A stretch of 64,000 nucleotides of DNA from contig CAVQUI010000005.1 in assembly GCA_963716775.1 (NCBI GenBank), positions 65,127 to 129,126 of the forward strand, written 5' to 3'. The DNA is from an uncultured delta proteobacterium. GTDB taxonomy: Bacteria; Myxococcota_A; Polyangia; Polyangiales; Houyiibacteriaceae. Shown one piece after another: positions 53,796-56,159 of the stretch (its first letter is position 1; each line of letters opens with the position of its first letter). The notes beneath the pieces were generated by a model. The model did not search any database. It worked only from the letters and a program-made list of their open reading frames with translations, and was not told the DNA's origin. The position numbers were made by a program, and so were the translations under genes.

Positions 53796-56159
53796 ATGAC
53801 CGATTCGATCTTTCCAGCCGGCGCCGAACCAATTTTGCCCATTCTCCCGCTGCGCAATTCGGTGCTCTTCCCGGCAACGGTGGTGCCGGTCAACGTAGGC
53901 AGGCCGCGATCGGTGCGTCTCATCGAAGAGGCCTGCGGGCGCGAGCGCCCTGCCATCGGGGTGGTGACACAGCACAGGGCCGAGGTGGAGGACCCGACCT
54001 TCGACCAGGTTTATCACGTGGGCACCATCGCCCGGGTCTTGAAGGTCATCCGCCTCAACTCCGGTCAGTACAGCGTGGTGCTCCAGGGCATCAGCCGGAT
54101 GCGCATCGAGGAAACCCTCGGCCGCCATCCAACGATGCGCGCCCGCGTTCATCGCTACCACGAGCCCCCCAGTGTCGACGTCGAAATCGAAGCCCTGGCC
54201 GCACACCTCAGGGAGTCCGCGCGCCAACTGCTCCACGACTTGCCGACGGCGTCGCGCGAGTCGTTGCACATCCTCGACAACGTTCGTGAGCCGGGCGCGC
54301 TGGCCGATCTCATCGAGTCGAACTTGCCGGTACCGAACGAATCCAAGCAAGAGGTTCTCGAAACGCTCGACATTCGAGAGCGAGTTCGCAAGGTTCTTGC
54401 CCAGGTCAATCGGCAGAACGAAGTGCTCCGTGTCAAAGAAGAGATCTCCAGCATGGTCGAAGAGGAGATGTCGAGCTCTCAACGAGAGTACTTGCTCCGC
54501 CAGCAGGTCAAGGCCATCCGGCGGGAGCTCGGTGAAACCGACGTCGACGAAGACGAAATCGAAAACCTCCGCGAGCGGATCGCGCTAGCCCGGCTCCCGA
54601 ACGAGGCCGAGCTGGGTGCGAAACGCGAGCTCAGGCGCATGGGCAACATGAACACGGCGAGCAGCGAGTACCAAGTCGCGCGAACCTACGTCGAATGGCT
54701 CGCCGATCTTCCCTGGGCCAAGAAGACCCCCGACCGGCTCGACGTCTTGCAGGCAAGGCGGGTCCTCGACGAAGACCACTACGGCCTCGAAAAGCCGAAG
54801 CGCCGAATCGTAGAATACGTCGCCGTCCGTAAGCTGCGGCGTGACGGGCGCGCACCCATTCTATGCTTCGTCGGTCCGCCCGGCGTCGGCAAGACATCGC
54901 TGGCGCGCTCGATCGCCCGCGCGTCGGGACGGGCCTTCGTTCGGGTGTCTCTCGGAGGCGTGTCCGACGAAGCAGAGGTCCGCGGGCACCGCCGCACCTA
55001 CGTCGGCGCCTTCCCCGGGCGCATCATTTCCGGTCTGAAGAAGGCGAGCTCGAACAACCCGGTGATGATCCTCGACGAGATCGACAAGCTCGGGCGAGAC
55101 CAGCGCGGCGACCCCGCCAGCGCTCTGCTCGAGGTGCTCGACCCCGAGCAGAACCATCAGTTCACCGATCACTACATCGACGCGCCCTTCGACCTCAGCA
55201 AGGTGATGTTCATCGCGACAGCCAATCAGAAGAGTACGATCCCTGGCCCGCTGCTCGACCGCATGGAAGTGATCGAGCTGCCTGGCTACACCGGGCGTGA
55301 GAAGCTTTCGATCGCGCGCGACTTTCTGATTCCCCGCCAGCTCAGCGAGCACGGTCTTTCTCCGGAGCGCCTCGATTTCTCGGATGAGGCGATCGACGTG
55401 CTGGTCGACTCGTACACCCACGAAGCTGGCGTTCGAAAGCTCGAACAACAGGCGGCTGCCGTCTGCCGCGCGGTCGCCGTCCGGATTGCAAACGGCGAAG
55501 ACCTTGCCATCATGGCCGACCCGCCCTTCATCGAAAGCGTCCTCGGCGCCGGGAAGGCGAAACGCCAAGAGCCAGAGCGAACCGCCAGGGCAGGCCTCGC
55601 GACCGGCCTGGCCTGGACCCCTGCGGGTGGAGACCTGCTCTTCGTCGAAGCGTCTAAGATGCCCGGCACGGGCAAGCTCCATCTCACCGGCAACATGGGA
55701 GACGTCCTGAAGGAGTCGGCCGCGGCGGCATTCACATTCATCCGCGCGCGCGCCGGGGAGCTGGGGCTCGCGGAGGATTTCGTGAGTCACACCGACATTC
55801 ACATTCACCTTCCCGCAGGTGGCGTCCCCAAAGACGGCGCGGCCGCAGGAGTCCCGCTCTTCGTGGCGCTGGCCTCCGTGCTCACTCAGGTCAAAGTCCG
55901 ACCCGACGTGGCGATGAGCGGGGAGATCACCCTTCGCGGCAACGTGCTCAAAGTCGGCGGCATCAAGGAGAAGTGCCTTGCGGCGCACCGCGCCGGTGTG
56001 AGGCGCATCGTTCTTCCACAGCGGAACGCGCCGGACCTCGACGATGTCCCCGATGAGGTGCGCGAAGACCTCGAGATTTGCCTGGTGTCCCGAGTCGACG
56101 AGGTCCTCAGCCTGGTCGCCGCGTTCGAGCCGAATCTGGCGCCCGCAGCCGCTGAATAG
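53796..56159 (+). CDS. lon: LonA-type AAA+ protease homolog with catalytic Ser replaced by Ala
   Basis: N-domain [13 protein letters not shown], Walker [10 protein letters not shown], Walker B MILDEIDK, and protease domain with GGIKEK (catalytic Lys context). The PKDGPSAG nucleophile motif reads PKDGAAAG (GCG 55839-55841, GCC 55842-55844). The start could be TTG 53784 or ATG 53796. Confidence 0.9.

Follow-up and report, generated by a model that had tools for sequence, protein, structure and literature searches.

The 64,000-nucleotide stretch of DNA analysed here (henceforth the window; positions 65,127 to 129,126 of contig CAVQUI010000005.1, assembly GCA_963716775.1, from an uncultured delta proteobacterium of the Polyangiales; G+C 63%) carries a full-length homologue of the ATP-dependent protease LonA, which we call lonX (53796-56159, + strand), in which the position of the catalytic serine is occupied by alanine. 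The locus comprises, in order, an S55-like gene, a DUF6923-like gene, a TIGR04552-family gene (-), lonX (+), a gene that we call dn1 (+), two unknown genes and ExbD/ExbB. The same order is found at loci with alanine at the catalytic position (Ala-type) and at loci with serine (Ser-type), indicating that these are orthologs at one locus.

Architecture of LonX and its nucleophile column

The open reading frame (ORF) of lonX is unbroken. Its longest form starts at TTG 53784 (791 amino acids), and the ATG at 53796 gives a protein of 787 amino acids, the length common to its orthologs, ending at a TAG stop (56157-56159); the ortholog at locus L004 is 98% identical. The Pfam domains follow one another as LON_substr_bdg (E = 6.5e-48), AAA (6.9e-27), Lon_lid (7.9e-18) and Lon_C (2.4e-77). 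The first of these is the N-terminal substrate-binding domain (PF02190, 53835-54410, residues 18-209 of the 791-residue form), the AAA+ module is matched by PF00004 and PF22667, and the last is the S16 protease fold (PF05362, 55530-56114), covered over profile positions 7-201 of 205. The NCBIfam equivalog model TIGR00763 ('lon') is matched with 920.9 bits, above its cut-off of 608, and the model of E. coli-type Lon (NF008053) with 733, below its cut-off of 891. When compared with all PDB chains by phmmer, LonX aligned end-to-end with the Lon of Thermus thermophilus (7p6u, 756 bits, residues 18-781).

All motifs expected of the motor are present. Walker A (GPPGVGKTS, 54873-54899) is identical in every LonX sequence tabulated, and it is followed by the pore-1 loop with its translocating Tyr (54987-55022) and by Walker B (ILDEIDK, 55068-55088). 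The sensor-1 Asn, the Arg finger and the sensor-2 Arg were all found, the motifs including LLDRMEVI and EAGVRKLE. Judged by score and architecture, the protein is a bona fide full-length LonA, as stated in a preliminary description of this DNA, whose Walker motifs, PKDGAAAG and GGIKEK were each recovered at the places it had given.

The protease domain departs from this pattern at its nucleophile motif, where the canonical PKDGPSAG reads PKDGAAAG (55827-55850). Codon 55839-55841 (GCG) places Ala at the position of the Pro that precedes the catalytic Ser, and codon 55842-55844 (GCC) places Ala at the Ser position itself (Ala683), exactly as first read. The substitution lies in the true nucleophile column, the phmmer alignment setting 'pkdgAAag' of the query on 'pkdgPSag' of 7p6u. 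The next PDB match, chain 7ypj, has 'pkdgPAag' at the same site; we take this structure, as well as 7ypk, to be the engineered MtaLonA S678A mutant. The catalytic Lys is kept: it lies within GGIKEK (55956-55973), which had been singled out as its context, and is more precisely the second K of that motif (Lys726, AAG, 55971-55973). It is invariant in 47/47 genomes of the family and stands 43 residues past position 683, a spacing identical to that of S679 and K722 in E. coli. Of the two residues of the LonA dyad, LonX therefore has the Lys (Lys726) but not the Ser (Ala683), and it should be filed, on its sequence, as a LonA family member by homology but a non-peptidase homologue.

Such a state is rare. 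An exhaustive HMMER search of 1.84 billion representatives of 50%-identity clusters yielded 150 LonAs, 148 of which align across the site. In these nearest LonA cluster representatives the nucleophile is Ser without exception (148/148), the residue before it is Pro in all but two, the first K of GGIKEK is often R, and the last K is conserved in 147/148, P0123 having Arg. A survey of Lon from 2022 noted that the Pro before the Ser is conserved and reported that true Lons had no known new variants of the active centre (PMC9569914). Full-text literature searches found no description of a natural full-length LonA that lacks the Ser.

Alanine and serine at codon 683

The best 120 homologs from a collection of 5.8 billion proteins were read at the nucleophile motif. 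They are 85-99% identical to LonX, come from metagenome-assembled genomes (MAGs) of Polyangiales/Myxococcota from many projects, and show PKDGAAAG in 74 cases, PRDSAAAG in one, PKDGASAG in 41 and PQDGASAG-like motifs in four. The set used for trees holds about 98 distinct orthologs of the Ala-Ala type (85-99% identity, many independent Polyangiales MAGs). In a scan with one genome for each GTDB species, 46 orthologous loci were recovered with their DNA. Thirty-four species-representative loci are listed as AAAG and use GCC, GCG, GCT or GCA at the Ser position, L045 being likewise AAAG, and Ser-type loci use TCG, TCT or TCC. On a tree of 47 sequences (the 46 loci and the window), codon 683 underwent at least 24 codon changes, only two of which altered the amino acid, in both cases between Ser and Ala, the remaining changes, 22 or more, being synonymous. 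Had the site been neutral, Thr, Pro, Val, Gly, Asp or Glu would have appeared as well, as each is one step from GCN.

These counts bear directly on the possibility that Ala683 arose from an error of sequencing or assembly or is a lesion confined to the strain. Two observations speak for it: the window contains one or more defects of the indel type (the gene downstream of lonX has a surplus T at 56783-56784), and an exact-sequence look-up showed the window LonX protein itself to be absent from the public collection. Nevertheless, Ala occupies the position in about 98 distinct orthologs, the underlying assemblies are independent, include both Illumina and nanopore data and stem from several projects, and all four Ala codons are in use with their many synonymous changes. 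The error or lesion reading is thereby refuted, and we give it practically no weight. The preliminary description had likewise held that the substitution is not noise, and its proviso that a variant without any conservation would suggest a strain-specific lesion has been answered by the same orthologs.

Close orthologs at the same locus (85-88% identity) have Ala-Ser instead of Ala-Ala, and Ser and Ala have been interchanged at least twice within the close family. We considered a single loss giving one clean Ala-Ala clade and rejected it, as such sequences were monophyletic in 0/100 bootstraps both in a Lon tree with the catalytic motif masked and in a tree of the flanking genes. In the latter, two Ser-type loci (L037 and L039) group with two Ala-type loci (L030 and L031) in 100/100 bootstraps, nested within the Ala assemblage. 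These two Ser-type proteins share all seven other residues that separate the Ala-type from the main Ser-type and differ from the Ala-type only at position 683. Parsimony on 100 bootstrap trees required two steps every time when reversal was allowed; with losses only, at least three independent Ser-to-Ala losses were needed in 98/100 trees. Accordingly, the trees point either to a Ser regained by a single GCC-to-TCC change or to an Ala that arose convergently several times. With at least two interchanges, proteolysis in this family appears to be optional and not to have been given up for good.

Beyond the close orthologs, the window protein belongs to a wider, syntenically defined Lon lineage (LonX, 54-69% identity to the window protein) whose protease site is widely degenerate. 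A Sandaracinaceae ortholog (L041, 69% identity) has PKDGPAAG. Relatives from metagenomes (L081-L088 and L090, 54-68% identity) show PAGG, AALG, PALG, PAMG, PGIG and TRDAASVG. Ser is thus replaced by Gly in L088 (PKDGPGIG), the motif of L090 is wholly rewritten (TRDAASVG), and the catalytic Lys is replaced by Arg in L085 as it is in the cluster representative P0123 (52% identity). Ser is kept in L080, L087 and P0121 (57-65% identity), two of which have lost GGxKE (NGLTPK in P0121, EDLTQK in L087). All canonical Lons are 52% or less identical to the window protein and have PSAG and the Lys. Throughout the lineage, Walker A, the pore-1 Tyr, Walker B, sensor-1, the Arg finger and sensor-2 are intact in the motif table, a uniform pattern in which the motor is indispensable and the cutting site dispensable.

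Selection on lonX was estimated by pairwise Nei-Gojobori (NG86) ratios of nonsynonymous to synonymous divergence (dN/dS) for each domain, the Ala clade comprising 33 genomes. In this clade dN/dS was 0.049 for the N domain, 0.050 for AAA+ and 0.064 for the protease domain (dS about 1.1-1.2); in the Ser clade the corresponding values were 0.034, 0.031 and 0.064 (dS about 1.4-1.5). The protease domain gives the same value in both clades, which indicates that loss of the nucleophile has not relaxed it. A gene decaying by drift after loss of the Ser would be compatible with the change of the first Gly of GG(I/V)KEK, beside the catalytic Lys, to Ser, Thr or Asp in 41/99 Ala-type sequences (41%), against 5/51 altered in the Ser-type (10%), and with the more degenerate protease motifs of the distant relatives. 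However, this Gly is, on the alignments, the only local sign of relaxation. The 787-residue ORF is intact in all complete orthologs, the three domains evolve at dN/dS of 0.05-0.06 at dS above 1, relaxation of the protease domain does not exceed that in Ser-bearing lineages, and the ATPase motifs are invariant. We therefore regard decay as exceedingly improbable, and the Ser-less state as almost certainly real, old and selected.

The protein might still be a protease through another nucleophile, for example Ser708 (at the position of E. coli Thr704, beside the catalytic Lys) acting with Lys726, or a water molecule activated by the Lys. In favour of this, the Ala clade shows no variation at Lys726 or in the pocket around it, Ser708 is kept in 46/47 family genomes, and position 683 alone separates Ala-type proteins from the nested Ser-type ones. 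On the other hand, Ser708 shows the same conservation within the Ser-type clade and thus does not represent a compensating change, and engineered Ser-to-Ala Lons are inactive despite having Thr704 and Lys722. In more distant members of the lineage, Arg replaces the Lys (L085 and P0123), and Ala, Met or Ile stands at position 708. We consider such an alternative mechanism very unlikely.

dn1 and the gene neighbourhood

The downstream gene dn1 (56163-58452, + strand) starts 3 nt after the lonX stop and encodes seven predicted transmembrane segments, a gluzincin-like domain (HExxH...E) and TPR repeats. In the window it is frameshifted: comparison with orthologs revealed an extra T (56783-56784, + strand; TT where L004 and L001 have T) that splits it into two overlapping ORFs, 56163-57386 and 56461-58452, and represents either an assembly indel error or a strain-specific pseudogene. 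Wherever the contig does not break off inside dn1 (45 loci), the gene is intact, at about 762 amino acids (755-831), as in L004 and L001 (L001:8368-10653).

By sequence, Pfam and PDB give only weak TPR repeats for dn1, its catalytic domain having no match in either, and the family is small (286 matches, annotated 'hypothetical' or 'TPR repeat protein'). An AlphaFold2 model of the full protein, built with 120 homologs (predicted local distance difference test score, pLDDT, 87.6; predicted template modelling score 0.83), consists of an all-helical membrane part up to about residue 240, an alpha/beta domain (245-500) and TPR repeats up to residue 745. Fold searches with the full-length model were dominated by TPR proteins; the gluzincin match came from a model of the domain only (pLDDT 88.6). 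With this domain, the top 13 Foldseek matches were peptidase domains of M9 collagenases (E 2.5e-5 to 2e-3, probability 1.0, TM score 0.53-0.58), followed by M61 and then M1 gluzincins. The residues H348-E349-x-x-H352 and E380 are invariant in 49/49 orthologs, as well as in 18 diverse orthologs and in the 120 homologs. The spacing of 28 residues from His to Glu equals that of ColG. dn1 appears to represent an undescribed family of membrane gluzincins, which would be putative peptidases. The loops between its seven hydrophobic segments carry more Lys and Arg on one side than on the other (9.5 versus 4.3), and the soluble part has four invariant Cys; with the positive-inside rule applied to these loops, the gluzincin-TPR part is probably periplasmic.

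A membrane gluzincin next to a Lon without its Ser raises the possibility of a protease divided over two genes, in which LonX unfolds and the adjacent metalloprotease-like dn1 cuts, like an FtsH split in two. The two genes are 3 nt apart and remain syntenic from 98% down to about 32% identity, the HExxH and the Glu 28 residues on are invariant, and the model of the domain matches M9 collagenases before M61 and M1. Nevertheless, we tentatively rejected direct feeding of dn1 by LonX on the predicted topology. A periplasmic gluzincin-TPR part, with the four invariant Cys typical of exported domains, could not be supplied directly by a cytoplasmic Lon. Ser-type and Ala-type LonX also have the same dn1 partner, so that dn1 does not track the loss of the Ser. 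We thus hold a two-gene protease to be very unlikely.

The linkage itself is tight and ancient. dn1 adjoins nine distant lonX genes, among them those of L041, L081, L083-L086, L088 and L090, where it is 32-49% identical, and this conservation of gene order implies that the two products would act in a common pathway. In the close family, the C-terminus of LonX ends, after a variable linker, in a near-invariant tail ...PAAAE (56142-56156 in the window), which could be a docking or degron-like motif or reflect a constraint of translational coupling to dn1.

On the other side of lonX, the divergent TIGR04552-family gene (52491-53675, - strand) matches its model with 334 bits against a cut-off of 125. 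A TIGR04552 gene occupies the same place at 42 close loci. It also adjoins lonX in the distant loci L081, L083, L084 and L086, where it is 61-65% identical and LonX only about 62-68%. A search of its product against PDB by sequence gave no match; a RelA_SpoT match fell below threshold (26.2 bits against 27). A TIGR04552 protein of M. xanthus, MXAN_4858, is encoded at the border of a cluster for gliding motility (bioRxiv 10.64898/2026.08.28.747804), a location that offers no more than a loose hint.

In an alignment of 16 loci, the intergenic region between the two divergent genes (53676-53795) contains the invariant blocks TTGATACCAG, GCGCTA, TTGCTG and TCGAATAT. They are invariant across Ala-type and Ser-type loci, and TTGATACCAG, TTGCTG and TCGAATAT are putative promoters. 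About 14 nt separate the end of the last block from the lonX ATG, and no obvious Shine-Dalgarno sequence precedes this ATG in the aligned intergenic region, which suggests that the mRNA leader of lonX would be very short or absent. Conservation of the TIGR04552-lonX-dn1 order suggests that the role is a specialised one and not general housekeeping. Membership of a defence system was rejected, as a PADLOC scan returned only generic similarity to BrxL and AAA for LonX and nothing for its neighbours.

Just downstream of lonX and dn1 (window 59293-63223) lie three ExbD/TolR-like genes and one MotA/ExbB-like gene, which are syntenic in the orthologous loci. Elsewhere in the window, two overlapping ORFs in different frames (22264-23936, - strand) both match ABC_tran; one covers only the first 87 of the 137 profile positions, and the other starts in the middle of the domain and continues into ABC_tran_Xtn. 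This looks like a second frameshift, in a gene for an ABC-F-type ATPase. The overlapping ORFs at 11238-14943 were also considered as frameshift fragments and rejected, as they encode different domains (GDSL lipase, phytase-like, thiolase) and represent separate genes with over-extended ORFs.

LonX as a candidate pseudoprotease

The reading that we favour, and consider probable, is that lonX encodes a natural LonA pseudoprotease with a working AAA+ motor, acting as an unfoldase or a holdase. LonX would still form the Lon hexamer, which the ring of protease domains would hold together, a task that would keep these domains constrained. Clients would be bound through the N domain and threaded with ATP through the pore, there would be no cleavage by the Ser-Lys mechanism, and the machine would serve as an unfoldase, a remodelling factor or a holdase that sequesters its substrates. 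The protease pocket may still bind peptides, adding to the constraint on its domain, and the retained Lys, together with the toggling of Ser and Ala, suggests that this pocket stays 'ready'. Since Ser and Ala are swapped with nothing else changing, the function under selection is probably ATP-dependent and non-proteolytic, with cleavage an optional extra.

Engineered protease-dead Lons illustrate what such a protein could do. Their ATPase remains active, and substrates continue to be bound and translocated; Lon S679A can also sequester the substrates that it binds, and protease-dead Pim1 of yeast keeps a chaperone-like function and supports complex assembly. The Ser679Ala substitution abolishes the peptidase activity of Lon (Amerik et al., 1991, cited in PMC9569914). 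LonX has the same substitution at the same position as E. coli S679A and MtaLonA S678A, with the difference that the change is natural and old, is upheld by selection throughout a clade, and is accompanied by Pro to Ala at -1. Compared with canonical LonA (E. coli Lon; 7p6u; Meiothermus taiwanensis LonA, 7fd4), LonX has the same length and domain order and all the ATPase, pore-loop and Lys motifs, whereas the nucleophile Ser and the Pro before it are both Ala and the gene lies in a TIGR04552-lon-dn1 context rather than with heat-shock genes or clpX.

Homologues of ATP-dependent proteases that lack catalytic residues, yet are conserved and functional, are also represented by plastid FtsHi (PMC8197885) and ClpR. 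These belong to other families (FtsH, M41, and ClpP, S14, respectively) and both act in hetero-complexes; for full-length LonA, the literature searches yielded no such case. In LonC of Meiothermus taiwanensis (MEROPS S16.007), as in LonX, one of two activities has been lost through changes at key residues and the fold kept (PMC9569914), but as a mirror image: LonC has lost the ATPase and kept the Ser-Lys protease, LonX has kept the ATPase and lost the Ser. Non-proteolytic use of an S16-fold domain without the dyad is found in BrxL, RadA/Sms and ComM/YifB, which are distant families with other architectures; LonX gives weak matches to the BrxL, RadA and YifB models. A natural LonA pseudoprotease would, on the best reading of the sequences, be the Lon counterpart of FtsHi and ClpR; its loss of the Ser is surprising, this residue having been regarded as invariant.

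By analogy with ClpR (ClpP/R rings) and FtsHi (plastid FtsH complexes), LonX might also join a Ser-bearing Lon paralog in mixed hexamers, as a non-catalytic subunit that tunes the activity or specificity of the paralog. In favour of this, strong conservation is seen both in the motor and in the protease domain through which the hexamer forms. Myxobacteria typically carry several Lon genes, such as LonV and LonD of M. xanthus, and canonical myxobacterial Lons such as L048 and L054 are about 50% identical to the LonX lineage. Against this stand the uncertainty of co-assembly at such identity, the lack of a second Lon among the large ORFs scanned in the window or tied to the same genomes, and the fact that, to our knowledge, Lon heterohexamers are not an established phenomenon. 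We judge mixed hexamers to be unlikely. Unlike lonX, the gene for a canonical Lon (PSAG) from another Polyangia lineage (P0357; L160:1-5379) is part of a heat-shock-type cluster, clpB-dnaJ-lon.

Several points weigh against the pseudoprotease interpretation. The proteolytic inactivity of LonX is deduced from one residue. Lys726 does not vary within the Ala clade, and neither does the remainder of the active-site architecture; this would not be expected of a dead site, except where the pocket has retained a use (peptide binding or allostery, for example) or where reversion is frequent in the lineage. The Ala-Ser orthologs at the same locus are probably active, in which case the family would not be uniformly one of pseudoproteases. 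All trees are neighbour-joining trees with short basal branches. Finally, a search of the protein collection for a canonical Lon, with L048 as the query, gave no match traceable to any genome of the Ala clade, so that LonX may be either an accessory unfoldase or a sole Lon that gave up proteolysis; as myxobacteria such as M. xanthus have several Lons (LonV and LonD), a canonical Lon probably coexists in these genomes.

A bolder extension, which we hold to be doubtful, is a myxobacterial LonX lineage in which proteolysis is a switchable accessory and the conserved job of the machine is non-degradative and tied to an envelope module of TIGR04552 and dn1. If this were true, a single first-position change (TCN to GCN or back) would have turned cleavage off, and probably on again, several times, with the AAA+ machine under constant selection meanwhile; its possible jobs would include the extraction, unfolding or holding of specific clients. 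Such a lineage would provide the first LonA pseudoprotease from nature, as well as the first example of a protease nucleophile toggled in the course of evolution.

Lon is among the most conserved of proteases, and the Ala clade, which is large and abundant and has the complete machine without the nucleophile, would separate its two functions in nature. The ATP-dependent, non-proteolytic activities of Lon (unfolding, holding and assembly), so far known mainly from engineered mutants of the S679A type, could then by themselves sustain strong selection. The closely related Ser-type and Ala-type orthologs, which in functional terms are set apart by essentially a single residue, constitute a natural experiment on what proteolysis adds. 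All these genes are annotated as 'endopeptidase La' or 'ATP-dependent Lon protease', a label that would overstate the abilities of the Ala-type products.

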